Shown in pieces: positions 1 through 35,681 of a stretch of DNA of 64,000 nt (position 1 is its first letter; each line of letters opens with the position of its first letter). Below the pieces are notes generated by a model. That model made no database searches and was not told where the DNA came from. It was given only the letters and a program-made list of their open reading frames with translations. The DNA is taken from positions 2,563,455 through 2,627,454 of the forward strand of contig OZ316899.1 of assembly GCA_973895155.1 (NCBI GenBank), read 5' to 3'. The position numbers and the translations under genes were made by a program. The stretch comes from Marsupella aquatica. Taxonomy: Eukaryota > Plantae > Marchantiophyta.

Positions 1-1256
1 AGATAGACCTGTGCCTTGCCGATCTCTACCCTCGGCAAGTTACAATGCATGGTCACCCGCAAGAAGTCGATCATCTCTCCTATGTGCGGGTTGGTGCAGG
101 TGTTCCGGAAGAAGCCATTCTTCGTTGATGGCCCAGGGAACGACCGGAACTCCTTGTCAGGCAAGGTCTTCCTGGTATCAACTTTGGTCTTATTGCCTAT
201 CGGCAAGCCAAACACTTCGGCAATTACCTTGGGAGTAAGATAGAAATCCTTCCCATATATCCTCGTGCAATTGGTCTCGGGTTCCCATGACCCCACGAAT
301 TCTAATAGGTCTGACTCCGGTACCTCCGGCTTCAGCCATGGTAATCTTACAAAGGCCTCTAAGCCGGATCCGGCCATGAAGCCTTGGTACTTCTTGGTCT
401 GCATGGCCGTGAAGCATGCATCCTCCTCCTGTGCAAAATGTAGTTGCACCTCCACCGGTAGGGTTGCCGCCCAGCCCTTCCAGGTGTCATCCCTGGTTGG
501 AATGGCCTTGATGGGATCTACCTCCTCCTCTTCGGCTTCTCCCTGCCTCCTGCTCTGCTACTCGGCTGGCTTCTTTGGTGCCGCCGACCTCGTTCTTTTT
601 GCCGGGGTGGCTTCATCGTTGATGGCTCCCTTCCTCTTCATCTCTGCTGCCGTGGAGGTTTCTCCTAGCACCGTTGCCTGGGTCCACCTTTCCGTGCTTC
701 CCTTTAATTCCCAGTGTATGTCGTTGCAGTTCTTGATGGCCTCTCGGATGCCGACGACGCTGTCTTTGCAAAACAGAAGATCGTCGAGTTGATTGGAAGT
801 AGGCGTCCACAGGAACTCGTCTTTGATGAGTTCGCCTCCTAAGAAAGCCGTCTTCTGCAGCTCCCACAATCGAGCGAGCTCCTGCCGTTCTCGAGCTGCC
901 CTTTCTGATTCCTCGTCTTCGTAAGTCTTGATGTACTCAGTTGCCCGTTCAAACAGGCATCCCCAGAAATGTGCCGCTTGATTGACGTTGCTCATACCCT
1001 CCTTAGGTCGATCGTCGGTATCTACTCTCTCCCCGAGTGCTTGCCTAAGCAGCTGACAGTAGTTGGCCTCCTATAGTCGTCTGCCTAGTTCGTGCTCACA
1101 AATGAGCCACCATCTCCTGCAAGCGCTCCTTACCCCTCTCCTCTGCCGGTCCTTCTTCCCGTTGATCCTTCCTAGCCGCCGACGCTTAACGCGCCCTAAC
1201 CCTAATCGGGTTTTCACCCTCAGCGTCCTTACCTCCGGCCTCGGCCCGGGTTCCAT
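1..1256 (-). pseudogene. N-terminal part of the family A LTR-encoded ORF (MEPGPRPEV...; one in-frame stop)
   Basis: ORF track 1071..1256 and 558..995 plus continuation match the 14253-17894 protein. Confidence 0.85.
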
Positions 1257-1371
1257 GGTTGCCCCTAATGGTTTATATTTTCCTTGTTTTGTCCCTATAC
1301 TAAGGTGTTCCTAGGGTGCCCTCCTGGTTTACCCACTTAACTGGCCGAGTGATTCCTGTCTAGGCATCACA
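1..1371 (-). mobile_element. Family A LTR, 5' (U3-start) part, truncated by the window edge; inserted into gag of element Z
   Basis: Ends ...TAGGCATCACA at 1371, the same terminus as at 18009, 21172, 50812 and (reverse) 27977. Near-identical to 16640-18009. Gag-like reading resumes right after 1371. Confidence 0.9.
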
Positions 1372-3366
1372 GGCCTCGGTTGCCTTGATGTCCTTATCGA
1401 TTGCTTTATGGTATTCCCGAGCTTCGTAGGCCTCCAACTATTTCTTTACCAATTCTTTGATGCGGGGATAAAATAGCTTTGGGTCGTCCCAACGGTAGTC
1501 ATCGTCCTTCTCTGGGGGTATATCTATCGCTGGATGCACTGGAGTAGTATCTTGCTTTTTCCTGCGTTTTTCTTCCTGTTTCTCTTCCTTCCGCTCGGCT
1601 CTTGTTGACACTCGGTAGCACTCAGCCTCGTCCGATGGATTAGGGTGCTCCGCCACGTCCACCAGATTTACCCACTTGGTGTTGTCATCTTGCCATTCCA
1701 CAGCAATCATTTGGACGACTGCATCGCTTGTGGCCGGTCCACCCTGGGCCGGTTTGCTTCGTTTGTTCGAGCGGCTATTACCAATGGACAGTTGGCTGTG
1801 GAGTGAGCTTCTGTTTTGCAGACTTGACATAGTGGTGTGCCTCGACCATCCCCCTGGCGTCTTGGTTTGGTGCATTCCCTCGCAAAGTGGCCTGGCTTCT
1901 CACAGTTGTAACAAACTGGGGATCGCCAAATCCCTGGCTTAGGAGGAATGCTCGGGTTACTGATAACTTGGAAACTTCTGCCATTGTTTGGGTAGGGGTA
2001 TGCATTTCTACCTCCTAAGTTACGCGGACCCACCGTTGAAATCTGATACACCAAATCAGGGGGATCTTCAAAGAAATACTCCGTGGACTCTGATTCAGGT
2101 CCCGGGTTGTCAACATCATCTAATTCCACCTGGTGGACTCGGTTCTTCCATCTTGGGCATTCCTGCACTACATGCCCGGATGGAAACACTTTGAACACCA
2201 CGCATGTGCTCGGGTCTCGGGTGGCTTCTTCTTCTCCGCAGGCTTTTCTGCAAGATGTACTGACAGTGCTTTGAGACAATTCGTGATTTTGTTAAGCTTG
2301 TCTGCTTCGGCGGCCTTTGGATCGGGTATCGTCTTTGAACACGGGGCTTGATTTTTCCCTCCTTCTTAACCCGCCTCTTCTTCTTTTTGCCCTGGCTCTC
2401 GCTCTCCAAATCACTTTCTGATGAGCTAGAAGTGGAGGATCCGCTGGTCGAAGTTGAATCCGAACTAGATTCTGTCTCTGAACTGGACGAGGTCGAATGA
2501 TGTTTCTTCTTCTTCTTGCGTTTCTTCTTCTTCTTGTCGTCTGATTCAGAGTCACTGTCACTGAAGGTCTTGTACTTGCCCTTCTTGCGGCGTGCCCGTT
2601 GGCTTTGCCGGGAGTTATAGGTGGACTCCCGGTAGGTTTTGGCGCACGCTATGGCTGCTTGCATTGAAATTGGGTTATTTTGGCGCACCCAGAATTGCAT
2701 ATTTGTGGGCAAACCATGGAGGAACCACGTAAGCTGGAGCGCGTCACCCGGCCTAGGCCGGATCTTGGCAGCAAGTTTTTGAAACTTCTGAATGAACTTT
2801 TGCAGGGACTCCTTCTTTCCCATGCAAAGCTGGCCGATCTTTAATAAAGAACGCTGCTCTGATCCAATGGCACGAAACTCTTGGAGCAACGCAGCTTGGA
2901 ATTGTGCCCATGTAGTCCCGGGTGGCAGCAAGTTGTACCATGGACAAGCTTCTCACCACATCACTCCGAGGAGGACGGTTAGCTTAATGGCGTCTTCCCC
3001 ATTGGCCTTAGCAGTGGCTTCAAACTCATCCAACCATTCATCCGGATCAACCCCATGACGCCCTTTGAAAGGTCGATAATGGAACCGCGACCGTTGTGAT
3101 ATTTGTGGGGGAGCTTGGGCAGCACGGGCCATAGCCGGTGGGGCGGCTTCCATAGGTACTGGTGGCGGTGGCGGTGCTGGTGGTGGTGCAACATGGACCG
3201 GAGTAGGACCGGCTGGACAAGACCCCGAAGGTCCCGGTGGTATGTTCATTTGTCGAGGTGATTGCGAGTCCTCCGAACCTGAAGAGTCGGAGCTTGTGGG
3301 GGTTGCACTCTCTCGTTTGATGGTCAATCTCCTCAAATAAGCTGCTTGAGAACGAGTGACGGGCAT
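1372..3366 (-). pseudogene. gag: gag of Ty3/gypsy element Z (capsid-like region, Lys/Ser-rich linker, CCHC knuckles), frameshifted
   Basis: MPVTRSQ start; FKGRHGVDPDEWLDEFE capsid motif; LTWFLHGLP; knuckles CYNCEKPGHFAREC and CQVCKTEAHSTANC; collinear with gag at 9781-11700. Confidence 0.9.
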
Positions 3367-3463
3367 TTACTTGTATAAATGCGATGGTTAGTAACTCACA
3401 AGGGCCTGGTGTATTCTGCCCAGGTGCACCTGCACATGTCTCCCCTCTACTATACGTAGAGTG

Positions 3464-3482
3464 CCCCCTCCATCTAGCACCA
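3464..3482 (-). promoter_or_regulatory. Primer binding site of element Z (tRNA-Asn-like)
   Basis: Minus strand TGGTGCTAGATGGAGGGGG just upstream of gag; one mismatch to the PBS at 11782-11800. Resembles the complement of the plant tRNA-Asn(GUU) 3' end as recalled (not database-checked). Confidence 0.75.
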
Positions 3483-4459
3483 AAAACAAAGGCTATGTCA
3501 CGCCGTCAGCCTAGACCTTAACCCGGGCTTTGGCTTAGACAGGCACATCCTTTGTTAAAATGAGGGTTCGGGCAGGGAGGGAGGCACGGAATGCACCTAA
3601 CTCACATAAACTAGTGCTAAGTGCGCCTATAGTCATATACGGACACCTCTTAGGTATGGTTTGTGTTCCGCCGCCGAAACGTACCTCAATCAATAGCAGG
3701 ATCGACCCCGGCTTACGGGCTTCTAAGCCTTCGTGTTGTCCACCTTTGATCCGGATTCGATGGTATGGGTACTCAACCCGGGCTCGCAACCACTCACCCG
3801 CAAGCTGCACCCCGTGCACAACTTGGGTAGTGCATTCGGCCAAGCATTGGCACCTATACACGAGATTCACACATATACATACGCACAAGCATACAATCTC
3901 GATTTACACGAAGGAAATGATGGGAAAGGATTTTACGACATAGGAGACATATGCGTACACTTAGTTGACCCGAAAGCTCTGGAATGAACAGGTCCGAGGC
4001 CGAGGGTGTACACTACAACGGAGCCCGGCTCCGCACTCGCCCAGCGAGCTTAGTCCTACACCCTCCCCTTGTACTCTTTCACTCCCAGAGGTCGGGACTC
4101 CCCGCACATACGGCGGATGTCCAACACTGAGACTAAAAATCCCCCCCCCCTTGCCTCTACCGAGGGGTGCACTAAATACTAAGGGCCGAGGAATGGAGTG
4201 CCCTTGCACCCAAAGATTCACTAACTAAGGTCCTAACTAAGCTGGCTGTCAGGCCAGAAAATGGCTTGTCTTATTAGAAGATCCTAATCTACGCAGGTTG
4301 TACAGCATGGCAGTGCTGCTTCAACTAGGGCAGGTGCTTGTCCCTATAGCCTAATTTAACTACTCCTACTCTATTTTAATCGTACTCTGCCGCTAATGCC
4401 TGGCACGCTTGCCAAAGCCGCCTGAGTGGGAGCGGCTATCCCGCTGCCTTTTGAGCCTG

Positions 4460-5740
4460 TGTGGTGCGTCCCATGGCTCCCTAAACCCAAGAAACCCCTC
4501 TGCTCAAGCCGATTCCCGCAGGTTTCGCTCTTGGCGAGGCCGATTTCGCGGCTTAGCGGCATGGGACGCTGCTAACTTCCTTCTACTACTATTGCTATTA
4601 ACATTTTACTCACATATACTGGACAGATCCTTCATCGGGTCATGAGATACGTAGCCGGCCTATTCTTGGCCTTCCCTTGTCCTCCTCTCTCGGTTTTCCT
4701 TTAGGTATGTTTGGATTCCGCCGCCGGAATGATCCCCAAGTGGCTTGGGTAAGCCGCTAAGACCTCTCTCAGCTCGACACATCCAACTCTTACTACCTTG
4801 CTTACTCCCTTCTTGGTTGATGCGGGCAATCTTCAAACAAGTTAATGCGACACACAAATAGCAAAATGACTCCTTCTGACTGAGTTATACCATGCACTTG
4901 CCATACAAACAGTACTTCTCATATACAAGATTTGCGAACTAAGCCGTGAGGCCAACTCTATTCATTTCTTAGGTATGAGGAAACATGAATATACACAAGG
5001 GTCACAGTATAACTAACCGAGACCTTCTTTAACTACTTGATCCCAGCCCTGCTGGTGCACTAAAAACTTGCTAAGGAAGAAGGCCCTCAACTCCCCGCTG
5101 CCCAGGTACTTATCCTAGTAGTGGATCCGCCTAATTCCTTGCAGCGTAAGCCTAATCTACCTAACTGTAATCTACCTATGTACAGCGAGGCAGGAGCACA
5201 AGTGTTGCTCTTACCAGTGGATCCGCAATCCCACTAAGCTAAGTGTCAGGGCCGCCCCTTGGTCCTGATCTTAATTTTAAACTTGGAGATCTGAGCCCGC
5301 CCTGCCCACTCACGCCTCCTCCCTCGACGTCCGCCCTCCTCAAAAGGAGCGGCCCTCCACCACCGTCATGGCAACGGTGTCTGGTCCTCAATGGACGCCC
5401 CCAACACTTCCTCCATAGCCACTACCCTAGGTCCGTCCTCTGACAGATTACCTGCTCCTGACCGAGTCAACTCTCCATCGGCCTGACTGGGTCCACCCTG
5501 GGCTTCGGCCTCAGCATCAGCATCGGTAGGTCCCAATGTACTCAGTTGCCCGTTCTAACAGGCATCCCAAAAAATGAGTAGCTTGATTGACGTTGCTCAT
5601 ACCCCTCTTGATCTGCTTCCACCCCGAGTGCTTGCCTGAGCAGCGGATAGCAGTTGGCCTCCCGTAGTCGTTTGCTTGGTTTGTGTTTGCAAATGAGCCA
5701 CCAGTCCTTGCGCTCGGTCCTTACCCCCCCCCCCCCTTGG
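4460..5740 (-). repeat. 3' LTR of element Y with two large deletions
   Basis: 4460-5526 matches 11805-12863. 5527-5740 matches the LTR-proximal part near 20730-20955. Joined directly to truncated integrase near 5763. Confidence 0.85.
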
Positions 5741-5762
5741 CCGTAGCCTATGCTGAGGCCGA

Positions 5763-8700
5763 GTGTAAAGTTTACCCGAGAACCTACTATACCTACTATC
5801 ATAAAGTAATACAAGATCTCCTGTGTGGATACTAACTGGTTTCAATCTTTTATCGTATTGCTGCTTCATGGTATTCTGTCTATATTCTACTCTCTCGGCT
5901 GAAATCATTCTTGCTTCTTCTAAAGCTTCTAATCTATATTCTCGCTCCTTTAGGCTTTCCTCCTCAGAGACTCTTTCCTCAATTGTAATTTGAAATGTGG
6001 GTATCTCAAGTTGCATGGGTACCAGAGCTTCTTGCCCAAAGGTTAAGAAAAAGGGTGTATGACCGGTAGTGGATTTATAGGCTAAATTGTAAGCAAAAAC
6101 AGCAGCAAACAATTTATCATCCCAATCGAGTTTGTTCTGAGCTATAGTTTTGTTTAATATTTTTCCTATAATCCCATTGGCTTGTTCTGTCAACCCATTT
6201 GCCTTTGGGTGGTAAGGAGTAGTAGGTCTATGTCTAACTAAATACTGCTTATTTAAACGACTAATTATATCAGTCAGAAAATGGGTTCCTCTATCACTAA
6301 CTAATTCTAAGGGTGCTCCATACCTGGTGAAGATCTGCTCATACATGAATCGAGCCGTAGTAATTGCGTCATCCTTCGTCGTCGGCCTGGCCTCCACCCA
6401 TTTAGTTGCATAATCCGTGGCCAGGATTATGTACTTGTTTCTCTGAGGATGGGTCAATGGTTTCAGAGGTCCCATGAAATCAATACCCCACTTCTTGAAT
6501 GGTGCCAGAGGTAGAATAGGGTGCAGAGGATGTCTTGTGGACGCCCTTGGTCCCCCCGCTCGTTGACAAGGATTGCATTGTTTGATAAATTGATAGACAT
6601 CTTTGTGCAATGTGGGCCACCAATAACCGGCATTTAATATCTTTTTAGACGTGGTTACTGGAGCAAAATGTCCGTCGGCTTCCTCCCCATGCATAGCCCA
6701 TAAGACTCGTTTTACCTCTCCCTTCTCCAAACACCTTTGAATCGTGCCGCTGATTCCATACCTGTGTAGCACACCCTTAATGTACTGATAAGTCTGACCT
6801 TCTGCAGAAAGACTACGGCTTGTTCTCGGGTTAGCCCTGGCTGTAATCTGGACGTGCTGAGAAATTGCAAAATCTCAGGGTACCATGTATCAGCTATTTC
6901 CACAACGAATAGCTCTTTGTCGGGAAATCGGTCATCGATGCAATCTATGGCAGGTTCACCTGTGATCCTTGAAAAGAAGTCGGCATTGGCGTGTAGCTTT
7001 TCCGGCTTGATTTTTAGCTCGTAGTCAAATTCCTGTAATAACAAAATCCATCTTGCTACCCTGCCTGTAAGGTCCGGCTTATTTACTAGGTATTTCAAAC
7101 TTTCATGATCGGTATGAAAGATTACTTTGTACCCTAGCAAATAATGCCTAAACTTTTTACATGAATAAATAACTCCTAAAGCTTCTCTTTCTGTGGTGGA
7201 GTAGTTCCGTTCGGCATCGGCAAGCTGGCGGCTTGCAAAGTATATGGGATGGTCCCTTCCTTTCTCATCTAACTGACTTAGTACTGAGCCAATACACAAG
7301 CCTGAGACATCTACGAAGACATGAAAATCTTTGTTCCAGTCTGGTGCTATCATGACTGGGGCCTCTACTAACTTTTGGTTTAATTCCACCACAGCTGTTA
7401 CTCTTTCTGCTGTGGGTTCAAAGTCTGCGCCTGCCTTGAGCATGTTGGTTAATGGTAAAGCTAGCTTGGCAAAATCCTTGATGAACCGGCAATAATACCC
7501 AATGCACCCATCAATGAAGGATCTCACATCTTTTATGTTTTTAGGTTGCATGATATCAAGCCATACTGCTAGCTTACCCTTGTCAATCTCAATGCCCTTC
7601 TTTGATACTTTGTGCCCTAGCAGCACACCTTCTGTTACTCCAAAGAAACATTTATCTGGGTGTAACTTGAGACCTACCTCTCTGCATCTCATGAAGGTCT
7701 TCCTTAGGTATTTAGCATGCTTCGATGCTTTCCCAAATACTGCAAAGTCATCAATGAAGATTTCCATGAACTTTCTCAAGTAGTCATGGAAAATGTTCAC
7801 TATTAATTGTTGGAACATAGCTGGTGCGTTGCAGAGTCCAAACGGCATACGATTGAAGACATAGATCCCCCATTCCGTGATGAAGGCCGTCTTGATTTGG
7901 TCCTCCTGCCTAATCCTGATTTGATTATAACCAGAGGACCCATCCATGAATGAGTATAATTCATGACTGGCTACCATGTCTAGTACCATATCAGTAAAGG
8001 GTAAAGGAAAATGGTCTTTTAACGTAGCCTCATTCAACTTCCTGTAATCCTGACAAACCCGGATCTTGGGTTTACCATCAGGTCCAGCTTTCTTGGGAAC
8101 TATCACAATTGAGACACCCAGTCTGAATGTAGGACTAGAGTGATGAATCCGGCTTCCACTAGTTTGTCGATTTCAGTTTTGACCATCAGGGAATACTTAG
8201 GGTTCATCCTTCGAATTGGTTGTCGAAATGATTTGGCCCCTAACATGAGATCAATTTGATGTTCTCCTAATTTTGGGTCTACTCCCTTCAGGTCTTGGTG
8301 ACTCCATGCGAACACATCCTGAAATTCAATCAGTAATTCACTGATTTCTTTCTCAAGCTCAGGTGCTAGGTCCGTCCCAAGTTTAGTTCCCTTTCCTTCT
8401 CCTAAGTCGAGCTTTTGGTATTGCCGTGCTTGGATCCTATTAATTTGCTTCTTTAAGTTTGGGTCCAATTCGGCTTCTAGCCTCTCCAGTCTCATACCTC
8501 CATAAACTGGAATCTCGTCCGTACTAGCCAAGTCGGTTTCTACCTGGTTATCCGCAGAGTGTCCCCTCGCCGGACTATTCGGTTTTGAATTGGTGATCGG
8601 TTTCCCTTCCGGCCTAGGCTCTGGTTTATTTCTGTGTATCTCATCCATTGTTGCCTCTTGAGGGTCAGGTCGATGTGCTCTTCCGACTTCTAATAGGGAC

Positions 8701-9780
8701 TCAATTTGTTCTGCCCTTGTAATCGGCTTGTATGCCAATTCCATGGTATTTACTTTATTGCCGACGGCGTTGTGGATCCTGCCGGCTCTGCCACAATGCC
8801 TGAGGAAAATCCATTGGCTTGGGTGCAGCTCCCCACTTAGCCATTTCATCCAACTGGTCCACTTTTTGTGCTTCCTCCGGAATTGAAGCTAAAAAGGTGG
8901 ACTCTATGGCAAAGTAGTCCTCGGTTTTGTCTTCATATTCCTCCAAGTCACTCTCCATAGGTTCTTGCCATAGTCCGCTGGGGGATACCTCTGGTCCAAA
9001 GATACTTTCTTCGGTCAGGTTAGTGAGGCATTCTAGCCAACGTACCTCATCTGCTGACTCCGGTCCATTGTCATACCCGTCTACCTCCCTAATGCTTCTC
9101 CTTCGGTCATCCTTGGTGTCCCAACATACCGTGATAGCGGGGTTTCCAAAAGTGAACTCCTTCTTCCCCCAATCCTCTATTACCTTGGCTAGATACAGCC
9201 ATGGTCTGCCAATCAATAGTCGAAATGACGTAGGGTTTACCGGCTTCATTACTACATAGTTAATGCTAAAGAAGATCCCTCCTATCTCAGTCTTGATGCC
9301 GGTTAACACTCCTGTGGGAATGACCTGATACCCATTGGCCATGTTCAACACTCTTCCAGTCATCTCCGGCGTTAGTCCCCATCCTTTTGCTGTTGAATCA
9401 ATCATAATGCATACCCCTGATCCTCCATCGATGGGTACCCTTAGTAATATTTCTCCTTGAATCATTAATGGTAGTGCGGGGGCTCCTTGATCTTCTTCTA
9501 TCATCAGCACATCGGATCTGGTTGCTACCTTGGGTAATCTCGGCTTACCGAGAATGGCCTTCCTTAACTGCTTTTGAAAGTACGGGCTATTTTTCAATAG
9601 TTGACCTACTGTTGCCGAGACTCTAGATTCTAGTACATCTTTAGCCAAGTCATAGGGGACTATCGGCTTCTCTTCTGCCGATGTCTCTGTATGGGCTTCT
9701 GCCGGTTTTTTCACGCTAGTTTCCACAGCCCTTGGATCCTCCAAAGCGAACAACGCTTTTGCTCATTTCACATCCTTAGC
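5763..9780 (-). pseudogene. pol: pol of element Y (protease, RT, RNase H, integrase), frameshifted
   Basis: IDGGSG protease; YRKLN, FMDGSSGYNQI, MPFGLCNAPA, FIDDF RT; FVDVS/NYSTTERE/TDHESL RNase H; HHCC plus WGIDFMGP, VSDRGTHF, TEQANG integrase. Confidence 0.95.
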
Positions 9781-11700
9781 TATGGCTTTGGTATTCTCCA
9801 GGGTTTCCAATTCTCGCAGTTGTTCCTTAACACTAGCCGTAATAGAGGGGTAAAACAACTTAGGGTGATCTCGATTGAAGTTGCTGTCCTGTGAAGGATT
9901 GGGCTCACTGGTGGGCTCATGGCTTACCTGTGTTGCCGGCGCCCTTCCTTCTCCTTCTGTTGATGTTGATGAAGAGTCAATCTTTTCTTCTTTAACCTTC
10001 CCTTTATTTTTGGCCAGCCCATCCCACCTTTCCTTCCTTCTGGTGGATCAAGTAGAGACCCGATAGCAATCATGATCTAAATCCTCTTCTGAAAATGTTG
10101 ATAGGGCCTCGGCCTCATCATCAGATGGTCCAAACTCTGCCTTGGCATCCACTTGCCATCCGAGTTTGATGTGGTTGATTTGAACTCCTCCTGGGGTAGT
10201 ACCCGGAGGCAAGACCTTGACCGACAAGAGCTTATGATTTGCGGCAAGTCCTGCCAACCAAGTAGGACATTGTCCTAGCATGTGACCTTCCTGTCGGCAT
10301 CCCATACATAGCTGAGCTGGTTGTCCATCACCTTGTTTGCGTGCATTCGGGCATTCTCTAGCAAAATGGCCAGGTTGACCACAATTATAGCATGCCGCAA
10401 ATCGTTGCACATTTGGCCTAGGAGGTACTGACGGATTTTGAATAATCCGAGGATACATTTCTCCCGGAGTGTTCCTTAATCCTGACTAGAGAGATGCAGG
10501 TCGGTTGGATAAGTCTCGTGCTCTAGTCTCACTGATGCCGAAAACACTATCAGCGGCATCCCCTAGAAAGTACTCTACTTCTCCCTGACATGGTCTGACC
10601 TCAGCCACATGCCGAACATGACTAGTATTAAGTTTAGGACATGCGTCTTTATGATGTCCGGTTTTATAACATAAGGCACACCATACCGAGCTATCCTCGA
10701 GTACTACCTTCTTCTTTGGTTTTACCTTTGCTATTATAGCTTTAAGCTGTTCGGTAAGAGCTACGATGTTATCTGGCGTTTTAGCTTCTAACTTGACTTT
10801 CAACTTCCCCCTCCTTCTACCCTTCTTTTTCCGAGATTTTTCTTCTTCAGAACTAGAAGATGACTCACTCTTGCTACCTCCGCTATCCGAGCTTGAGTTA
10901 TCACTTCTTGACTTCTTAGAATGTTTCTTTTTCTTATCTTTTTTCTTATGGGGTGATCCATCCTCCAATGAGGAACTCTCAGACTTTAGCTGTTTTTTCC
11001 GGTTTGTGATATCCGCATTAATGTATAATTGAATATCTCTAATTGCCTTGGCTAAAGTCTCTGGGTTCTCCTTTCTAATTGCAAAACTCATCTTCTATGG
11101 CAAAGCATTTACCAACCATTGAAGTTGCATACCTTTAGATGCATTGGTCTTTGTACGTCTTACCAGCTTTTGGAAGCGTTGCAAGAACTTTCTGAAGGAT
11201 TTGTTCTCCTTGAACTGAAGTCGTCCCAATTTCAGCACTGCTAGCTCTGAGGTTCCAATGGGTCAAAACTCCTTTACAAATAGTGATTTGAAGGTATGCC
11301 AAATGGCTTGATCTTCCACATCCAATGCTCTGTACCAAGGCCTAGCCTCACCCTTGAACAGGCCGGGAAGAATCTGCATCTTGATGGCCGATTCTCCATT
11401 TGCTGCAACGGTCCCTTTGAAGTCATCCAACCATTCATCCGGATCCTCATCTCCTCTTCCATGAAATGCCTTGTAATGAATGCGCGACCGTTGGCTCAGT
11501 CTGGTCCCAGGCCTCTCTTCTGGCCGTGCCTCTGGTTCCCCATGTCGGTTGGGGACTCACTTCTCCCTACCGACTCCTCTTCTAGTATGGCTTCTTCGAC
11601 GCCACTTTCAGTTACGGAATGACTAGCTCCTTCTGCCCCTCTTAGTTGTTGTGTATCATGCCACCCAGCGAGCTGCTACAGACGAACTCTCTCCCATTGA
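9781..11700 (-). pseudogene. gag: gag of element Y with three CCHC knuckles; start approximate
   Basis: Reconstructed FHGRGDEDPDEWLDDF motif; knuckles CALCYKTGHHKDAC, CYNCGQPGHFAREC, CMGCRQEGHMLGQC; several stops. Confidence 0.88.
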
Positions 11701-11781
11701 ATCACTCTTTCCTCCCTTAGCGTAGTTTCAGTCATTACCTACGTTTCCTCCCTGACTTCATATCTCACGGCTTAAGAAATG

Positions 11782-11800
11782 CCCCCTCCATCTAGCGCCA
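11782..11800 (-). promoter_or_regulatory. Primer binding site of element Y (tRNA-Asn-like)
   Basis: Minus strand reads LTR ...CCACA-TTTT-TGGCGCTAGATGGAGGGGG. Confidence 0.85.
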
Positions 11801-13336
11801 AAAATGTGGTGCATCCCATGGCTCCCTAAACCCAAGAAACCCCTCTGCTCAAGCCGATTCCCGTAGGTTTTGCTGTTGGCGAGGCCAATTTTGCGGCTTA
11901 GCAGCATGGGACGCTGCTAACTTCTTTCTACTACTATTGCTATTAACATTTTACTCACATATACTGGACAGATCCTTCATCGGGTCATGAGATACGTAGC
12001 CAGGCATTCTTGGCCTTCCCTTGTCCTCCTCTCTCGGTTTTCCTTTAGGTATGTTTGGATTCCGCCGCCGAAATGATCCCCAACTGGCTTGGGTAAGCCG
12101 CTAAGACCTCTCTCAGCTCGACACATCCAACTCTTACTACCTTGCTTACTCCCTTCTTGGTTGATGCGGGCAATCTTCAAACAAGTTAATGCGACACACA
12201 AATAGCAAAATGACTCCTTCTGACTGAGTTATACCATGCACTTGCCATACAAACAGTACTTCTCATATACAAGATTTGCGAACTAAGCCGTGAGGCCAAC
12301 TCTATTCATTTCTTAGGTATGAGGAAACATGAATATACACAAGGTCACAGTATAACTAACCGAGAGCTTCTTTAACTACTTGATCCCAGCCCTGCTGGTG
12401 CACTAAAAACTTGCTAAGGAAGAAGGCCCTCAACTCCCCGCTGCCCAGGTACTTATCCTAGTAGTGGATCCGCCTAATTCCTTGCAGCGTAAGCCTAATG
12501 TACCTAACTGTAATCTACCTATGTACAGCAAGGCAGGAGCACAAGTGTTGCTCTTACCAGTGGATCCGCAATCCCACTAAGCTAAGTGTCAGGGTCGCCC
12601 CTTGGTCCTGATCTTAATTCTAAACTTGGAGATCTGAGCCTGCCCTGCCCACTCACACCTCCTCCCTCGACGTCCGCCCTCCTCAAAAGGAGCGGCCCTC
12701 CACCATCGTCATGGCAGCCGTGTCTGGTCCTCAATGGACGCCCCCAACACTTCCTCCGTAGCCACTACCGTAGGTCCGTCCTCTGACAGATTACCTGCTC
12801 CTGACCGAGTCAACTCTCCATCGGCCAGATTGGGTCCACCCTCGGCTTCGGCCTCAGCATCGGCCAGGCCTCCCCGACATGTTCTAGTGATGGATCCGGT
12901 ACCCCGGCTTCATCACCGAGTATCCTGGCCCCGGCTTCATCATCCCCGCCTTCTAAGGTAGTTGGATCCTCTACCGTGACCCTGCCTGAGGTTGGTGTTG
13001 GGTTTACCTCCTTGGTCACGACGTCTTGAGGAGTCGTATTACTCCCTGACCCAGAAGGTTTCCGCTTCTTCTTCTTCTTTGGTTTGGCAGCTGGCCCCTT
13101 CCCCTTGCCACTTACCTCCGGCACCGGTGCGAGTGTCTCGGCTTGTCCTTCGGCCAGTACTATACCAGGTAACTTGGTTGCCCCAATTGGAGTTGGTCCT
13201 GAGGAAGCCAAGCACTTAAATACTATGGCCTGTTTCTTCAGCCGCCCCGTTTGGTTGTCGGCTCGGCACTGTAAGTTTTCCATCTTCCGCGTGCTTTCCT
13301 CCAACTCCTCCTGTAATTCATCCAGGTCCTTGCGTG

Positions 13337-16300
13337 TGTGGTGCGTCCCATGGCTCCCTAAACCCAAGAAACCCCCCAGCTCAAGCCGATTCCCGCAGGT
13401 TTTGCGCTTGGCGAGGCCATTTCCGCGGCTTAGCGGCATGGGACGCTGCTAACCTTCTACTACTACTATTAACATTTTACACACATATACTGGACAGATA
13501 CTTCATCGGGTCATGAGATACGTAGCCGGCCTAATCTAGGCCTTCCCTCGTCTTCCCCTTTGTCTTGTTAGGTATGTTTGGATTCCGCCGCCGGAATGAT
13601 CCCCAATAGGCTTGGTTAAGCCGCTAAGACCTCTCTCAGCTCGACACATCCAACTCTCACTCCCCTGCTTACTTTCCTTCCTTCTGTTGGTTGATGTGGG
13701 CACTCTTCACACAAGTTAATGCGACACACAAATAGCAAAATGACTCCTTCTGACTGAGTCATACCATGCACTTGCCATACAAACAGTACATCTCATACAC
13801 AAGCTCTGCGAACTAAGCCGTGAGGCCAACTCTATTCAGCTCTTAGGCATGAGGAAACATGAATATACACAAGGGTCACTGTATGACTAACCGAGAGCTT
13901 CCCTTACTACTTGATCCCAGCCCGGCTGGTGCAAACTAAAAACTTGCTAAAGAAGAGGCCCTGAGCTCCCCGCCGCCCAGGTACTTATCCTGGTAGTGGA
14001 TCCGCCTAATTCTTTGCAGCGTAAGCCTAATCTACCTAACAGTAATCTACTTGCCCGGATCTACCTATGTACAGCAAGGCAGGAGCACAAGTGTTGCTCC
14101 TACCAGTGGAACCGCAGTCCCACAAGCTAAGTGTCAGGGCCGCTCCTGGTCCTGATCCTAATCCTAAACTTGGAGATCAGCGCCCGCCCTGCCCACTCAC
14201 GCCTCCTCCCTCCACGTCCGCCCTTCCTAAAAGGAACGGCGCCCTTGCACCGTCACGACACCGGTGGTGGATCCTCAATGGACGCCCCCAATGCTTCCTC
14301 CTCAGCCACTGCCGTAGGTTCGTTTTCTGACAGATTACCTGCCCTTGACTGAGTCAACTCTCTATCGGCCTGACTGGGTCCACCATCAGCGTCGGCATCG
14401 GCTCGGGAGTCATTCTCGGCTACGGCCTCAGCCTCGGCTATGGTCTCACCGGCCTGCTCAAGAGGCGGATCTGGGATACCGGCCTCATTACTGAGTAGTT
14501 CGGCTTGGGCCGCACCATCCCCACCCTTGATGATAGCGGAATCTATTGCCGTATTCATGCCGGAGGATGGTGCTGGGTCTACCTCCTTGGTCACCACGGC
14601 CTGTGGGGTCGGATTACTCCTTGACCCTGAAGGTTTCCGCTTCTTCTTCCTTTCTGGTTCGGCAGCTGGTCCCTTCCCCTTCCCACTTACCTCCGGCACT
14701 GGTGCAGGTGGCGCGGCTTTTTCTGTGGCCAGTACCACTCCTGGTAACTTGGTTGCCCCAATTGGAGTTGGGCCTGATGAAGACAAGCACTTAAATACTG
14801 TAGCTTGTTTCTTCAGCCGCTCCGTTTGGTTGTCGGCCCGTCGCTGGAGGTTCTCCATCTTCCTCGTGATTTCCTCCAACTCCTCCTGGGTCTCATCCAG
14901 GTCCTTGCGTGCCTCCTCTAGTTCCTTCTGGGCTTCCTCCCGTTCTTGTTTCAAGGTAGTCCTCTCCTCCCGGGTTGCTCTTAGCTCCTTGTCGAGCTCT
15001 GCAATGATGACAGACTCCATCTGGTTCATCTTGGCGTAAGTCTGATCGAGCATCTCGTCCTTCTCCCTTAGGTTGGCCTTGAAGCTGGCCGTCAGGGACG
15101 CAAGCTCCTGCTGCAGCGCCATAATCCCTTGATAGGATTTCCCTAACTCGGCCTCCTTCTGCTCAAGGGCTCCGCGGATTTTCTCGAGCTCCCCCTTCAA
15201 CGCCCATTCCTTTCTTTGGGTCTCCGCCATGGCCCGGCTGTTGGCTGTTATGTGGGCCTCCTCTGTATTCTTCAGCTCTCGCTTCCACTTCTCCCTCTCT
15301 TTGATCGTATCGGCCAACTCTCCCTGCGTCTGAGTCAGTTTATCCTTGATATTCCGATTATCAGCCTGCGCGGTGTCCAACTGCCCCTGCATGATGTTCA
15401 GCTCATGCCGTTTAATCCGCAGTTCATCTTGGGCTTTCTTGGCCGCCCTTAGGTCTTCAATCTCGGCTTCCATTTTCCTAAGCCGCCGAATGACCTCGTC
15501 CTTCTTGCTTCTCTCTAAAGCCACCGCTTCTTCTAATTGGTGCTTCTCCAACTGCTCCCTATGGAAAAAGGGTCCTACCTCCAACTCCTCTCCAAAGATG
15601 CCGAGCGCAAGTTCCCCACACATCTCACCATACTCCATGGCTCTATTCTTAGCGTAGGTGGAGTAAGTAGGAGTGATCGGCATCGCCCATCGCGGCCTCT
15701 GCTCCCAAGCCGTCTTGCGGATCTCTTCAATCGTGGCTAGAGGTTTGCTTCCTTTTTCGGCTAGCCGCCTGATGTCCTCCGGCCAATCTCCTCCTGGTAA
15801 ATCCTTTTCCCTAGCCAGGGCTGCCTCCTCTTCCTGCCTGATTCGCTCCTGAAATTCCTGCGCCGTCTGTTTTATGCCGTCAAAGCTCGGGGGAGCAACA
15901 TCTGGTGGGGGAGACTCAGGGCTACTCTGCTGGTTGGGGTCCCCTCGTACTACCCTTGGAAGCGTGGGGACAAACCGGCCACAGGTCCTTACTCCTGGAA
16001 CGTGATGGTCCGACCCATAGCCGGAATTATCATGGCTGCAGTCCTCCACTGCCTCCTGTACTTCTTGGACATCCGGCTTCTCCCTCTCCTCTTCGTCGGT
16101 AGGAGCTTCAGGCAATTCTGCCTCAGATTCAGAGCTTGAGACTCCCACATACATTCGAACACCTGGCTTGGATTCTGGCCTGATTCTCTCCTTGTCTCCA
16201 GCAAAGGGGTTTTCTCTTGTGAGCCGGTGTAGGCCTACCTCTGGAGTAGTGTCCTGCATTGTTGCCGTTGCCATTGTCGTTGCCGATGCCGATCTCTTTT

Positions 16301-18009
16301 CTTTCTCCAGTAGTTTCAGCAGACTCTGCATGCCTGGTTGCTGCATTGGCAAGTCCTCCGTCCTTGGCCTAAACACCTGCTCGATCGTAGGGCTAACAGG
16401 TGGTTGAGGCTTCTCTGCTAACAGCCTCAGCGTTGGAGCTTCCTCGGGTGCCCTTACCTGCAGGGGAAGTACTGGGGCAAAAGTCTGACCTCTAGCATAC
16501 CGGCACAACAGCGGCATGTGATAGCCAAGCCGCGACACCCTCCCCATGCCGATTACCTACTGCTCCTCCTTTAAGATCTTCTTCAATTGGTTGAGGAGGT
16601 ACCTGTTGTAGTCCCGGCTTGGGTCTGGCCTCTCTGCCAGATAGACCTGTGCTTTGCCGATCTCTGCCCTCAGCAAGTTACAATGCATGGTCACCCGCAA
16701 GAAGTCGATCATCTCTCCTATGTGCGGGTTGGTGCAGGTGTTCCGGAAGAAGCCATTCTTCGTTGATGGCCCGGGGAACGACCGGAACTCCTTGTCAGGC
16801 AAGGTCTTCCTGGTATCAACTTTGGTCTTATTGCCTATCGGCAAGCCAAACACTTCGGCAATCACTTTGGGAGTAAGATAGAAATCCTTCCCATATATCC
16901 TCGTGCAATTGGTCTCGGGTTCCCATGACCCCACGAATTCTAATAGGTCTGACTCCGGTACCTCCGGCTTCAGCCATGGTAATCTTACAAAGGCCTCTAA
17001 GCCGGATCCGGCCATGAAGCCTTGGTACTTCTTGGTCTACATGGCCGTAAAGCATGCATCCTCCTCCCGTGCAAAATGTAGTTGCACCTCCACCGGTAGG
17101 GTTGCCGCCCAGCCCTTCCAGGTGTCATCCCTGGTTGGAATGGCCTTGATGGGATCGACCTCCTCCTCTTCGGCTTCTCCCTGCCTCCTGCTCTGCTGCT
17201 CGGCTGGCTTCTTTGGTGCCGCCGACCTCGTTCTTTTTGCTCGGGTGGCTTCATCGTTGATGGCTCCCTTCCTCTTCATCTCTGCTGCCGTGGAGATTTC
17301 TCCTAGCACCGTTGCTTGGGTCCACCTTTCCGTGCTACCCTTTAATTCCCAGTGTATGTCATTGCAGTTCTTGATGGCCTCTCGGATGCCGACGACGCTG
17401 GCGTTGCAAAACAGAAGATCGTCGAGTTGATTGGAAGTAGGAGTCCACAAGAACTCGTCCTTGACGAGTTCGCCTCCTAAGAAAGCCGTCTTCTGCAGCT
17501 CCCACAATCGAGCGAGCTCCTGCCATTCTCGAGCTGCCCTTTCTGATTCCTCGTCCTCGTAAGTCTTGATGTACTCAGTTGCCCGTTCGAACAGGCATCC
17601 CCAGAAATGTGCTGCTTGATTGACGTTGCTCATACCCTCCTTAGGTCGATCGTCGGTATCTATTCTCTCCCCGAGTGCTTCCCTAAGCAGCTGACAGTAG
17701 TTGGCCTCCCGTAGTCGTCTGCCTAGTTCGTGCTCGCAAATGAGCCACCATCTCCTACAAGCGCTCCTTACCCCTCTCCTCTTCAGGTCCTTCCTCCCGT
17801 TGATCCTTCCTAGCCATCGACGCTTAACGCGCCCTAACCCTAATCGAGTTTTCTCCCCCAGCGTCCTTACCTCCGGCCTCGGCCCGGGTTCCATGGTCGC
17901 CCCTAATTGTTTATATTTTCCTTGTTTTGTCCCTATACTAAGGTGTTTCTAGGGTGCCTTCCTGCTTTACCCACTTAACTGGCCGAGTGATTCCTGTCTA
18001 GGCATCACA
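13337..18009 (-). mobile_element. Solo LTR of family A, 4673 bp, protein-coding
   Basis: TGTG...CACA termini; perfect 5-bp TSD GCGTG (13332-13336, 18010-18014); no gag/pol inside. Confidence 0.93.
14253..17894 (-). pseudogene. LTR-encoded protein of about 1213 aa: N-terminal domain, PMD/Transposase_32-like domain, low-complexity linker, long coiled coil, acidic tail (two in-frame stops)
   Basis: ORFs 17037..17894, 16557..17015 and 14253..16547 share one frame, separated only by TAG codons that are sense codons in other copies. Motif LPW...EFVGSWEPET...YGKDFYLTP.VIAEVFGLP. Confidence 0.85.
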
Positions 18010-21000
18010 GCGTGCCTCCTCCCGCTCCTTCTGGGCTTCCTCTAATTCCTTCTTTAAGGTCGCCCTCTCCTCCTAGGTTGCTCTCAGCTCCTTGTCGAGC
18101 TCCGTAACGACCTTAGACTCCATTTTATTCATCTTGGCATAAGTATGGTCGAGCTGGTCGTCTTTCTTGCGAAGGTCGGCCTTGAAGCTGGCCATCATGG
18201 ATGCGAGCTCCTGCCGCAGCACGATAATCGCCTGATAGGATTTCCCTAACTCGGCCTCCTTCTGCTCAAGGGCTCCGCGGATATCCTCGAGTTCCCCCTT
18301 CAGCGCCCTTTCCCTTCTCTGAGTCTCCGCCATGGCCTGATTATTAGCTGCTATGTGGGCCTCCTCTGCATCTCTCAGCTCTCGCTTCCACTTCTCCTTC
18401 TCCTTGATCGAATCGGCCAGATCACATTGGGTCCGAGTCAGTTTATCCTTGATAATCTGATTATCAGACTGCGCGGTATCCAATTGCCCTTGCATGATGT
18501 TGAGCTCATGCTGCTTAATCCGCAGCTCATCTTGGGCTTTCTTGGACGCCTTCAGGTCTTCTACCTTGGCTTCCTTTGCCCTAAGCCGACGGATGACCTC
18601 GTCCTTCTTGCTTCTTTCCAAAGCCATCGCTTCTTCTAATCGGTGCTTCTCCAACATTTCCCTCTGGAAAAAAGGTTCCTGCTCCAACTCCTCCCCAAAG
18701 ATGCCGAGCGCAAGTTCCCCACACATCTCCCCGTACTCCATGGCTCATTCTTTAGCATAGGCGGAGTGAGCAAAAGTCATCGGCATCATCCACCGCAGCC
18801 TTTGTTCCCACGCAGCCTTGCGGATTTCTTCTATCGTGGCTGGCGGGCTGCTTCATTTTCCTGCAAGCCGTCGGATGTCCTCTGGCCATTCTCCTCCTGG
18901 TAAATCCTTCTCCCTTGCCAGGGCTGCCTCCTCTTCCTCCCTGCATCGTTCCTGAAACTCCTATGCTGTCTGTTTTATGTCGTCAAAACTTGGGGGAGCG
19001 ACATCTGGTGGGGAGACTCGGGGCTGCTCTGCTGGGTCGGGTCCCCTCAAACTACTCTTGGAAGAGTGGGGATGAACCTGCCACAGGTCCTTATTCCTGG
19101 AACATGATGGTCCGACCCGTAGCCGGAGTCATCATTGTCGTAGCCTTCTACCGCCTCCTCCTCGGCTTGTTCTACCGGCTCCCCCGCTGCTGTCCTGGTC
19201 CTGCCGTGAACACAACCCCACAGATCACGGGTCCTGGTTCCTCCGGCTTCCACGTTGATCTCATCTTCTCCCTGTCGTGACCAGGGGCCTCGGACTGCTT
19301 CTCCTCGGCTTTGGGACTTGAAGCTCCTACATACATTTGGACTCCCGACTCGTGTTCCGGCCTCCTTCTCTCCTTGGCTTCGGTAAAGGGGTTTTCCCTG
19401 GTAAGTTGGCTAAGGCCGACCTCGGAAGTAGTATTATGTACTGGCCCCGTTGCCGCTGCCGTTCTCCTTTCCTTCTCCAGCAATTTCAACAGATTCTGCA
19501 TGCCTGGTTGCTGCATCGGCAAGTCCTCCTTCCTTGGCCTAAACACCTACTCAATTGTAGGACTGTCGGGCTGGGTCGGTTTCTCTGTTGCCGGCCTTGG
19601 TTCCGGAACCTCCTCTGGTGCTCTTGCCTGCAGGGGAAGTACCGGGGCGAATATCTGGCTTCGGGCATACCGGCACAACAGCGGCATGTGATAACCAAGC
19701 CGGGACACGCTTCCCATGCCGATCACCAGCTGTTCCTCCTTCAAGATCTTCTTTAGTTGGGTGAGGAGGTACCCGTTGTAGTCTCGGCTTGGGTCTGGCC
19801 TCTCCGCCAGATAGACCTGTGCCTTGCCGATCTCTACCCTCCGCAAGTTACAATGCATGGTCACCCGCAAGAAATCGATCATTTCTCCTATGTGTGGGTT
19901 GGTGCAGGTGTTTCCGAAGAAGCCATTCTTTGTTGATGGCTGTGGAAAGGACCGGAACTTCTTGTCTGGCAAGGTCTTCCTGGTATCTACTTTGGTCTTA
20001 TTGCCCATTGGCAAGCCAAACACTTTGGCAATCACCCGGGGAGTGAGATAGAAATCCTTCCCATACACCCTTGTGGAATTGGTCTCGGGCTCCCATGATC
20101 CCACGAATTCCAGTAAGTCTGAATCCGGTACCTCCGGCTTCAGCCATGGAAACTTTACGAATGCTTCCAAGCCGGATCTGGCCATGAAGCCCTGGTATTT
20201 CCGAGTCTGCATAGCCGTAAAGCATGCATCCTCTTCCCTCGCAAAGTGTAATTGCACCTCCTTGGGGAGGGTCGCCGCCCAGCCTTTCCAGGTGTCATCT
20301 CTTGTTGGAACGGCATTGACGGGGTCGACCTCCTCCTCTTGGGCTTCCGCCTGCCTCCTGCTTCCCTGCTCTGCTGGTTTCCTGGGTGCCGCCGACCTTG
20401 TTCTTATTGCAGGGTTGGCTTCTTCGTTGTTGTTCCCTTTCCTCTTCATAGTGGCTGTCGTGGATGTTTCTCCTAGCATGGTTGCCTTCTTCCACCCCTC
20501 TGTGCTACCCTTCAACTCCCAGTGTATGTCGTTGCAGCGGTTGATGGCCTCCGGGATGCCAACTATCTTGTTCTCACAAAACAGAAGATCGTCAAGTTCG
20601 TCGGCAGTAGGCGTCCACAAGAATTCAGCCGTAATGAGTTTTCCTCCTAAGAAAGCAGACTTCTGCAGCTCCCACAGCCGAGCGAGCTCCTACCATTCTC
20701 AAGCCGCTCTCTCTGATTCTTTGTCCTGGTAGGTCCCAATGTACTCAATTGCCCGTTCTAACAGGCATCCCCAAAATGAGCATCTTGATTGACGTTGCTC
20801 ATACCCCTCTTGAATTGATCGTTGGTATCTGCTTCCACCCCGAGTGCTTGCCTGAGCAGCGGACAGCAGGTGGCCTCCCGTAGTCATCCGCTTGGCTTGT
20901 GTTTGCAAATGAGCCGCCAGTCCTTGCGCTTGGTCCTTACCCCCCCCCCCTTGGCTGGTCTTCCTTCCCGTTAGTAGCCGCCGGTACTTAGCGCTCCCTA

Positions 21001-21172
21001 ACCCTAATCGTGTTTCCCCCGACGTCCTTACTTTCAGCCTCGGCTCGGGTTCCATATTCACCCTTAATTGTTTATATTTCCCTATTTTTGTTACTATACT
21101 AAGGTGTTTCCTAGGGTACACTCCTGATTTTACTAATTAAACTGGCCTAATGATTCCTGGCTAGGCATCACA

Positions 21173-23675: not shown

Positions 23676-24924
23676 TCAGAGGAGATAGTAGGTGACTAAG
23701 GGAAAGCGAGGGAGCCGGGGTCGAAGCTGGCACGTGGACTAAAGAACTGGTGCACTGCAAAGGATCGGCCCCCCTTTTATACCTTGAGAGCTCGTCGACC
23801 GCCTGACGCCTCCTTGTTGCTTATAGGCCGAGCCTTTCACGCTCGCAGTGTACCGGCCCCTTCGCCGGTCCGGGTCAGCTCGTGTTAGTGGCCGCCTCCT
23901 GGAGTTTGTTATACGGACCCGAGGGAGGGAGAAAGGGGGCCCATTACACGCTCGCAACCCGGGCGTGCGAATGGCGACCCGCCACCAGCCCAAACATGAA
24001 TTCCCCTTATTGACTAATGATTTCCTACTCATAATGGCTACCTAAATACTGTTGTTATGCTAATAATAACGGCCTAAGATACCCCTAACGCGCATGCTAA
24101 GCACGGTTAGACCAAATCACTCATTACCCGCCATACCGGCGGCGTCACAAACCTCTTTACCGGGGTCAAGGAGAGAAGGAGGCCGGAACACGAGCCGGGA
24201 GTCCGAATGTATGTAGGAGCTTCAAGTCCCGAAGCCGAGGAAAAGCAGCCCAAAGCTCCTGGTCACGACAGGGAGAAGAAGAGATCAACGTGGAAGCCGG
24301 AGGAACCAAGACCCGTGATCTGTGAGGCCGTGTTCACGGCAAGACTAGGACAGTAGCGGGGGGAGCCGGTAGTCCAAGCCAAGGAGGAGGCGGTAGAAGG
24401 CTACGACAATGATGACTCCGGCTATGGGTCGGACCATCATGTTCCAGGAATAAGGACCTATGGCAGGTTCATCCCCACGCTTCCAAGAGTAGTTTGAGGG
24501 GACCCAACCCAGCAGAGCAGCCCCGGGTCTCCCCCACCAGATGTCGCTCCCCCGAGCTTTGACGGCATAAAACAGACGGCACAGGAATTTCAGGAACAAC
24601 TCAAGGAGGAAGAAGAGGCAGCCCTGGCTAGGGAGAAAGATTTACCAGGAGGAGAATGGCCAGAGGACATCAGGCGGCTTGCAGAAAAATGAAGCAGCCC
24701 TCCAGCCACGATAGAAGAAATCCGCAAGGTGGCTTGGGAACAAAGGCCGCGGTGGATGATGCCGATGACTTCTACTCACTCCGCCTATGCTAAAGAACGA
24801 GCCATGGAGTATGGGGAGATGTGTGGGGAACTCGCGCCCAACATCTTTGGGGAGGAGTTGGAGCAGGGACCCTTTTTTCAGAGGGAAATGTTGGAGAAGC
24901 GTCGATTAGAAGAAGCGGTGGCAT

Positions 24925-27900: not shown

Positions 27901-27988
27901 CGACCGCCTCAAGAAATACTATATGGACAAAGATGAAGTTGTTCGCGAGGACGCTTCACAATTAAGTGGGGAGCTATGTGATGCCTAG
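24925..27988 (+). pseudogene. pol: pol (RT-RNase H-integrase), degenerate
   Basis: Near-identical to 5763-8690 in reverse; complete integrase C-terminus ...GELCDA*. Confidence 0.93.
27964..27976 (+). promoter_or_regulatory. Polypurine tract of family A
   Basis: AAGTGGGGAGCTA immediately before the LTR start TGTGATGCC. Confidence 0.75.
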
Positions 27989-35065: not shown

Positions 35066-35679
35066 CATTGTTCACCATAATTAGTGGGAGTAATACTAAT
35101 TCAAGAGTGCCCATTTTTGGGGTCTACTTGCAAATTAGTGTTAGTCACGCTAATTCCGAGCAAACACTAATTCCGCGCGCACCAAATAGTGTTACCAGAA
35201 TGACGGGACTTCAAGTGTTCTTGGCAACCAGGCCTATCATCACAGGCTCTTTGTTAGGGTATTCAGTTGTCACTCTCGTTCACACTAACATTGATTGATG
35301 AGCACAATGTGAGATGACAGAAAAAGATCCCTAATAGATGCTTTAGCCTCCACGACTATAGAGCTCTCCGCACCTCCAAATGCTCTACTATTGGATGGGA
35401 AATAAAACCTCCAAAAATGATTGCATGCGGGAGTAAATGTGCGGAGCCCCCAAATCCCTTATAGATACTCTAGCCCTCCATGACTATAGAGCTTTCACTT
35501 CCAGAATGCTCTACAGTATTATGTTGAACAAAACATTTAAATAGAACATCAATTTTTTTTTTTTAAACCAACACCAATTAGTGTTACTTTTGCTTCCGGA
35601 TCAAGTTTACATAAATTAATGTAACACTAATTTTAGAATAACACTAATTTTGACATAACACTAATTATGGTTAACAGTG
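35066..35679. mobile_element. Tc1/mariner(pogo)-type MITE, 614 bp
   Basis: TA on both sides; TIR CATTGTTCACCATAATTAGTG vs CACTGTTAACCATAATTAGTG; subterminal CACTAATT repeats. Confidence 0.85.
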
Positions 35680-35681
35680 TA

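Follow-up and report, generated by a model that had tools for sequence, protein, structure and literature searches.

A large accessory gene with a predicted VANC/PMD-type fold inside the long terminal repeat of a Marsupella aquatica Ty3/gypsy retrotransposon

In a 64,000-nucleotide stretch of the genome of the liverwort Marsupella aquatica (GenBank assembly GCA_973895155.1, contig OZ316899.1, positions 2,563,455 to 2,627,454; hereafter the window), a Ty3/gypsy retrotransposon was found to carry a gene of about 1,126 codons within its long terminal repeat (LTR). That the LTR of this family bears a coding gene is practically certain. In the explanation that we consider best, to which we assign a probability of about 0.5, this gene encodes a DNA-binding protein with a predicted core of the VANC/plant-mobile-domain (PMD) fold, which is likely to work in trans against the silencing of its own family. 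All positions given below are window coordinates and refer to the minus strand unless marked (+).

The unit in question, a solo LTR of 4,673 bp designated copy A, extends from 13337 to 18009, begins with TGTG, ends with CACA and is flanked by a perfect target-site duplication (TSD), GCGTG, at 13332-13336 and 18010-18014. The same unit of ca. 4.7 kb occurs as a 5' LTR before a primer binding site (PBS), as a 3' LTR after a polypurine tract (PPT), and as a second solo LTR; its 3' end adjoins the PBS at 11805 and its 5' end comes after the PPT at 27977. The full LTRs measure 4,673, 4,690 and 4,773 bp, and the TSD pairs are perfect at three places. A self-search of LTR A found no internal terminal repeat, which rules out a short-LTR element carrying its open reading frame (ORF) internally. 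The original prediction, made from the sequence alone, had taken the whole 4.7-kb segment for an LTR on the strength of its termini, its GCGTG duplication and the recurrence of those termini beside the PBS and the PPT; all of these were re-found and bear the assignment out, and no short LTR with the ORF outside it was seen.

A self-comparison of the window revealed nested LTR copies sharing 81-97% identity. Copy A lies inside the 5' LTR (copy C) of an older family member, the outer element (4460-21172, TSD GCCTG). Copy C is consequently split into a 5' part at 18015-21172 (LTR nt 1-3098) and a 3' part at 11805-13336 (LTR nt 3099-4673), which total 4,690 bp and are followed by the PBS. The 3' LTR of the outer element (4460-5741) is internally deleted, retaining the gene start region and the last 49 codons, and the two LTRs of this element differ at 26 of 1,059 sites. 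The second solo LTR, copy B (46040-50812, 4,773 bp, TSD ACCCT), holds the entire gene, broken by five stops and by frameshifts. Copy D (27977-31661, +; LTR nt 1-3302) is a truncated, gene-bearing 3' LTR situated directly after an integrase frame and PPT, and copy G (24150-24922, +), the remnant 5' LTR of this plus-strand element, is 96.5% identical to it. Copy E (1-1371), cut by the window edge, is 96.6% identical to copy A. The full element of this family (family 1) was reconstructed at about 15.6 kb, with an internal region of 6.2 kb that contains gag-pol only. Each element had been expected to carry two copies of the gene; both LTRs of one TSD-bounded element do so, in parts only. The expectation that solo-LTR formation leaves the gene behind held for the two TSD-flanked solo LTRs in the window (GCGTG and ACCCT), which retain it, though both copies are broken.

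The arrangement was also compared with contigs from four sequencing runs (22,009, 37,600, 790 and 98 matching records), which include the junction with the PPT as well as the two empty sites. Contigs from run X2 jump 4,678-4,680 nt over copy A; in a contig from run X5 the PPT letters of 27962-27976 form a loose end beyond 18009; and in a contig from run X6 position 21175 is joined directly to the letters of 3496-4459, which belong to the insertion host of the outer element (family 2, described below), as in an uninterrupted site.

The LTR-sense frame at 17894-14253 comprises 1,213 codons, or 77.9% of the 4,673 nt, and is interrupted by TAG at codon 286 and again at codon 446; this 3642-nt frame with only two TAGs, already pointed out in the original prediction, is far beyond chance. 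From codon 88 to codon 1213 the sense frame contains two stops, versus 22-53 in each of the other five frames, and in 500 simulations of neutral decay at 15% per-lineage divergence about 16 stops were expected, with a minimum of 6. The ratio of nonsynonymous to synonymous substitution rates (dN/dS) from codon 88 on was 0.12-0.30 in all but one of 14 copy pairs; the exceptional pair (0.52), which is indistinguishable from neutral (p=0.14), consists of the two LTRs of one element. Values for copy A against the five other copies were 0.16-0.28, those for codons 671-1030 likewise 0.16-0.28, and those for the core domain 0.09-0.17, the figure of 0.09 belonging to copy D. The upstream stretch, codons 1-87 (17634-17894), displayed a dN/dS of 0.66-1.50 in all ten pairs and contains a frameshift in copy C; its variable sites are distributed over the three codon positions as 31/31/24, versus 26/15/46 in codons 88-200 (Fisher p=0.001). 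Since these 87 codons behave as non-coding DNA, the gene is counted from 17633, and the ATG at this position is the likely true start; the methionine matching codon 88 is also the start in three of the four long homologues. An ATG at 17894 was considered as the start and is ruled out by the neutral-like behaviour of codons 1-87, a stretch that is open in the same frame and likely represents a promoter or 5' leader. The large sense frame is thus real, but the gene (14253-17633, broken by TAG at 17039-17037 and 16559-16557) encodes about 1,126 aa and fills 72% of the LTR, rather than the ~1213 aa and 78% first proposed.

Both TAGs of copy A are private to it, as are 18 of the 21 stop sites found among the copies to a single copy each. 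Transitions of the C-to-T type in CG or CHG context account for 17 of these 21 sites, a pattern expected of methylated copies decaying after insertion; to judge by these base changes, the LTR copies look methylated. Copies C, D and G have in common a TGA at codon 715, which precedes the coiled coil described below; beyond this codon purifying selection persists (dN/dS 0.15), and the stop may represent a recurrent mutation, an inherited break or a site of read-through. The gene of copy D also contains an insertion of about 300 bp (30584-30880, +).

The same layout was found in a sister element, family 2, into which the outer family-1 element is inserted. Its 5' LTR, 3,936 bp in total, consists of a first part at 24149-21178, with TATAAA at 23781 and a homologous gene from a putative ATG at 23675 containing three in-frame stops, and a last part at 4459-3496, where the gene stops at 4395; a PBS at about 3482 and then Gag follow. 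This LTR holds a single sense frame of about 850 codons, with those three stops. Its core is 23% identical to that of family 1 over 179 aa (E 6e-14), and a coiled-coil-like region comes after it. The Gag proteins of the two families are 50-57% identical in their best blocks, and the PBS motif after the family-2 LTR is nearly identical to that of family 1. As the layout is shared at only 23% protein identity, it is likely, on comparison of the two sequences, to be older than the split of the families. The PBS of family 2 begins 13 nt past the LTR end (3483-3495), versus 4 nt in family 1. In the region 1-31661 the two sister families are nested in each other's LTRs and gag: copy A in copy C, the element containing copy C (C-F) in family 2, family 2 in copy G, and copy E in family 2. 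A purine stands first in each of the three TSDs and in each of two single flanks (GCGTG, GCCTG, ACCCT, GGCCT, AACCT), a set too small to indicate a preference.

Four regions can be distinguished in the accessory protein. A conserved N-terminal domain (17304-17633) aligns with family 2, liverwort and other homologues and belongs to no known family, being without a Pfam match; it is followed by a core domain (approximately 16465-17140) and by a predicted long coiled coil (approximately 14805-15557), rich in E, K and L, with sub-threshold matches to coiled-coil Pfam families. A basic cluster, RKKKRK (14634-14651; residue 995 from the new start), resembles a nuclear localization signal (NLS). Both the coiled coil and nuclear targeting are predicted from the sequence. 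A search of solved protein sequences (PDB) with the accessory protein returned coiled-coil noise only (best E 0.021), and neither two word-index sequence searches nor scans of viral and metagenome contigs produced a match to it. Language-model neighbours that carry a family assignment were Transposase_32 (0.88), ATHILA, DUF1985 (0.85) and PMD (0.84), all below 0.9 and taken as leads only.

A structure of the core was modelled on the homologous stretch at 19640-20320. With an alignment of 48 sequences, the model reached a predicted local distance difference test score (pLDDT) of 88.2 and a predicted template-modelling score (pTM) of 0.86; with one of five sequences, the pLDDT was only 45. When the model was compared with 48,161 solved chains, VANC21 bound to DNA was the sole chain at a Z of at least 5 (Z 8.8, the next being 2.2). 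The superposition on VANC21 (9lnk) covered 208 aligned residues, the root-mean-square deviation (rmsd) being 4.2 and the identity 9%. VANC21 was also the top match by Foldseek, with a template-modelling (TM) score of 0.49 versus at most 0.18 for the next, but an E of 0.6. According to this model, the core very probably adopts a fold of the VANC (DUF1985)/PMD type.

A profile search yielded 50 homologues of the core. Among those of the 21 looked up that carry an organism name, eight are from Calypogeia fissa and one is from Riccia sorocarpa; the closest named relatives of both the gene and the reverse transcriptase (RT) are liverworts, which by themselves point to a liverwort as the likely host. 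In C. fissa, the gene copies CAM6101869/70 and CAM6101879/80, ten accession numbers apart on one contig, are 98-99% identical, with a first piece ending at residue 171 in both. An LTR pair is conceivable, although the way in which the pieces are ordered suggests opposite strands.

The element itself is a Ty3/gypsy LTR retrotransposon, as shown by the order RT, RNase H, integrase, the TG..CA LTRs, the TSD, the PBS and the PPT. In the outer element the PBS (11782-11800) is a TGG-initial motif located 4 nt past the LTR, after CACA, and is followed by a decayed gag-pol (5762-11781) with Gag, a protease region, RT, RNase H and integrase; its Gag matches that of family 2, and the Pfam families detected were RVT_1, RT_RNaseH, Integrase_H2C2 and rve (RT and RNase H at 8172-6715, then integrase at 6874-5597). 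The best named RT matches were from Calypogeia fissa (63-66%) and Riccia sorocarpa (51-54%), with angiosperms at 44-48%. A quick tree of the 102 of 120 matches that covered at least 300 residues, built without labelled lineage references, placed the window RT with Calypogeia (Shimodaira-Hasegawa-like approximate likelihood-ratio support 99), outside the clade of angiosperm matches. No additional RNase H was found by Pfam in the scanned pol pieces, nor is one listed for the 120 RT matches; the native RNase H, read by eye, has its four acidic catalytic positions. An integrase scan returned three distant loci of 32-45% identity, which have no bearing here.

According to the explanation that we favour, an Athila-type 3' accessory gene would have been absorbed into the LTR once a PPT at the integrase end came into use. 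The gene would lie in the unique 3' region (U3) of the LTR with its own promoter near the LTR 5' end, and the genomic RNA would start downstream of it, in the last ~900 bp. Reverse transcription would then copy the gene into both LTRs, and recombination between LTRs would leave it in solo LTRs. The protein, presumably nuclear, would oligomerise via its coiled coil, bind the DNA of its family and oppose methylation-based silencing in trans. Such an anti-silencing function has an even chance of being correct. A bolder extension is rather improbable: that the VANC-fold protein is made from any LTR, solo LTRs included, which would make the LTR a self-contained anti-silencing cassette and let recombination, normally a disarming process, deposit trans-activators in the genome, and that the bryophyte genes represent an ancient lineage of a fold from which the angiosperm PMD and VANC proteins arose later.

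Several observations weigh against this explanation. All six family-1 copies compared have stops or frameshifts, the family-2 copy of the gene is broken too, and the shared TGA at codon 715 raises the point that a truncated subfamily may still have transposed. The accessory protein matches no Pfam family at threshold, and among its 50 homologues just one gave a weak match to Transposase_32 (E 0.006). The match to VANC21, at the identity, rmsd and Foldseek E given above (9%, 4.2 and 0.6), is remote; a shared fold by itself shows no function, and host PMD proteins, MAIL1 and MAIN, are described as also acting in silencing. A VANC-style motif array was sought in the non-coding LTR parts, where 17 of 18 exact k-mer tests were null and one 7-mer was enriched in copy B (p=0.005, uncorrected). 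Furthermore, the canonical TATA boxes found lie only 5' of the gene, a position that suits the repeat and unique 5' regions (R/U5) equally with U3.

In LTR A the sole TATAAA, at 17910-17915 (LTR nt 95), is unchanged in five of five copies and is a candidate gene promoter; in family 2, TATAAA stands at LTR nt 369, upstream of the gene. Because these boxes precede the gene in both families, a second placement has to be weighed, in which a gene of the same fold lies in R/U5, the genomic RNA starts from the upstream TATA, and the gene is the first cistron, with gag-pol expressed via splicing or read-through, like a 5' extra ORF that has moved into the LTR. Two conserved GTAAGG donor-like motifs in the family-1 leader are consistent with splicing, and 5' extra ORFs are described for Ogre, TatII and Tekay, but by-eye inspection found no matching donor motif in family 2. 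On general knowledge, this placement would also need a first reverse-transcription product of ~4.5 kb, as well as read-through of U-rich end signals; a U-rich stretch at 13778-13869 contains four of the eleven TGTA words of the LTR and is a candidate upstream poly(A) element. We regard R/U5 as possible but unlikely, and lean slightly towards U3, with a gene promoter near the LTR 5' end. Three points favour U3. The integrase frame of the plus-strand element crosses the PPT (27962-27976, +), which adjoins the LTR, and stops at LTR nt 10-12, so that it enters the LTR and a 3' internal region is lacking; the closest relative in print is a 3' sense ORF of a sunflower Athila; and the sole non-coding block common to both families sits 3' of the gene. 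This block of ~26 bp (13568-13593, at the alignment end), a candidate core promoter or R element, emerged from an alignment of the 3' non-coding parts of the two families that scored 65 versus a null maximum of 53.5 (200 shuffles), and its core was found in four of four family-1 3' ends and at 3676.

As to function, the protein might bind DNA or chromatin for a different job: targeting integration to the clusters of its own family, plain activation of transcription, or dampening of the element. The insertions nested in one another in the window fit the first of these, although nesting is, on general knowledge, usual in repeat-rich regions without any targeting factor; PMD proteins are described as acting both for and against silencing, and the search of the non-coding LTR parts turned up no motif array. 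The sole match among solved structures, however, is a DNA-bound anti-silencing factor, and we consider a different job doubtful. A role as an env-like or movement protein, which has been put forward for sense ORFs of Athila, would agree with the placement of the gene in the genomic RNA, 3' of pol and in sense orientation. Such a role was rejected as very unlikely: the family-1 protein has no membrane segment (maximum 19-residue hydropathy 0.82; in family 2 the maximum of 1.63 falls in a proline-rich linker), no predicted viral fold in BFVD matched at E 0.001 (best E 0.43), and the modelled core resembles a DNA-binding domain. Mutator-like DNA transposons are known to carry VANC genes, and the unit could in principle be a DNA transposon in its own right, a non-autonomous element with short LTRs or an artefact of the assembly. 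Against these stand the TG..CA ends, the 5-bp TSDs and the PBS and PPT adjacency in two families, the lack of internal terminal repeats and of a transposase match, and, for an assembly artefact, the fact that the copies are 81-97% identical and not duplicates, with junctions and empty sites seen in contigs of other runs. A DNA transposon and an assembly duplicate were both rejected on these LTR hallmarks and identities, and this group of alternatives is extremely improbable.

A protein gene in the LTR, and hence in both LTRs, is known from mouse mammary tumour virus, whose sag encodes a much smaller retroviral membrane protein; its fold is unrelated to that of the present gene, for which the U3 placement is itself only probable. 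In the published passages compared, the extra ORFs of plant elements are placed within the internal region, either upstream of gag-pol or downstream of it (PMC6317226, PMC7264820, PMC11728184), and plant LTRs of up to ~5 kb are mentioned without coding content. Since surveys class plant extra ORFs only as upstream or downstream of gag-pol, an LTR-borne gene is easily missed. Our literature searches, which lay outside Repbase, the GyDB entries and Steinbauerova et al. 2011, turned up no gene located in a plant LTR; a methods sentence worded in that way appears to refer to ORFs that lie between LTRs, and a preprint with such wording had lost it in its published form. The Retrosat2/RIRE3 system with its ORF0 (PMC3485330) resembles the present one in having LTRs longer than 3 kb, one extra ORF and numerous solo LTRs, but in the passages compared this ORF is upstream of gag-pol and treated apart from the LTR, and Retrosat-2 is placed among the Tekay/Del chromoviruses.

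Athila and Ogre/Retand elements (ATHILA PF03078, Transposase_32 PF20167, PMD PF10536) are likewise gypsy elements with a large accessory gene, likely of the same domain superfamily, as suggested by the language-model leads below 0.9; here, the internal region of 6.2 kb is gag-pol only and the gene makes up 72% of the LTR. Sunflower Athila carries a Transposase_32 3' sense ORF, and that of Athila 14 has, as described, the sense orientation and an NLS, as here. The lack of an additional RNase H, the 5-bp TSD and the length of ~15.6 kb (within 7-23 kb) all agree with Athila as delimited in REXdb, 47% of whose members are reported to have an internal extra ORF 3' of pol; here there is none, and the gene is in the LTR. 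Tat I-III, Ogre and Retand are defined by an additional RNase H, which was not found here. The liverwort Tat Z1/Z2 elements (PMC10508981, PMC13468544) are, as here, non-chromovirus gypsy elements with an intact native RNase H and no additional one; they are likened by description, the passages compared making no mention of LTR size or LTR-borne ORFs. Phygy and Selgy, described with 4-bp TSDs and lengths below 10 kb, do not fit 5-bp TSDs and ~15.6 kb. The lineage may be Athila-like or Tat Z1/Z2.

VANC21 of Arabidopsis VANDAL21 (PDB 9lnk/9lnj; PMC5735166) shares with the present protein the predicted core fold, a transposon origin and a predicted coiled coil. VANC proteins, described as dicot-specific, bind short motifs and strip methylation from their own transposon family; PMD-C domains are reported to resemble VANC DUF1985, and coiled-coil oligomers have been predicted for VANC and for the Athila domain. 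The differences are that VANC21 is encoded by a VANDAL Mutator-like element and the present gene by a gypsy LTR, that identity is 9%, and that arrays of target motifs were not found here in the non-coding LTR parts.

Taken together, two gypsy families, likely from a liverwort, house in their LTRs an accessory gene of PMD/VANC-type predicted fold, a variant layout with no plant precedent in the literature searched, from which Repbase was absent. The gene is large, under selection and common to two diverged families, and if solo LTRs express it, the family would not be fully disarmed when they form. The modelled fold would extend VANC/PMD-type domains to a bryophyte retrotransposon, which bears on a question that Ikeda et al. 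call fully open, namely whether the retrotransposon or the host PMD came first. It also provides, in the group to which the tractable model Marchantia belongs, a candidate anti-silencing factor encoded by a retrotransposon.

Several minor features were recorded. In the LTR, TTAGGG occurs twice in tandem at nt 167-178 (about 17832-17843), intact in four of five copies, and TTTAGGG is present near the 3' end of copy A (13355-13362); telomere-like words are not enriched over shuffles. No tRNA genes were found in the window, and the region 3400-24400 gave no match to Rfam. At 53561-55687 an unrelated gypsy pol fragment contains RNase H and an integrase ending in a partial PHD finger (PF00628, sub-threshold at E 1e-4), and the region 35622-35939 consists of compound, near-perfect tandem duplications with periods of 26, 51 and 106 bp.

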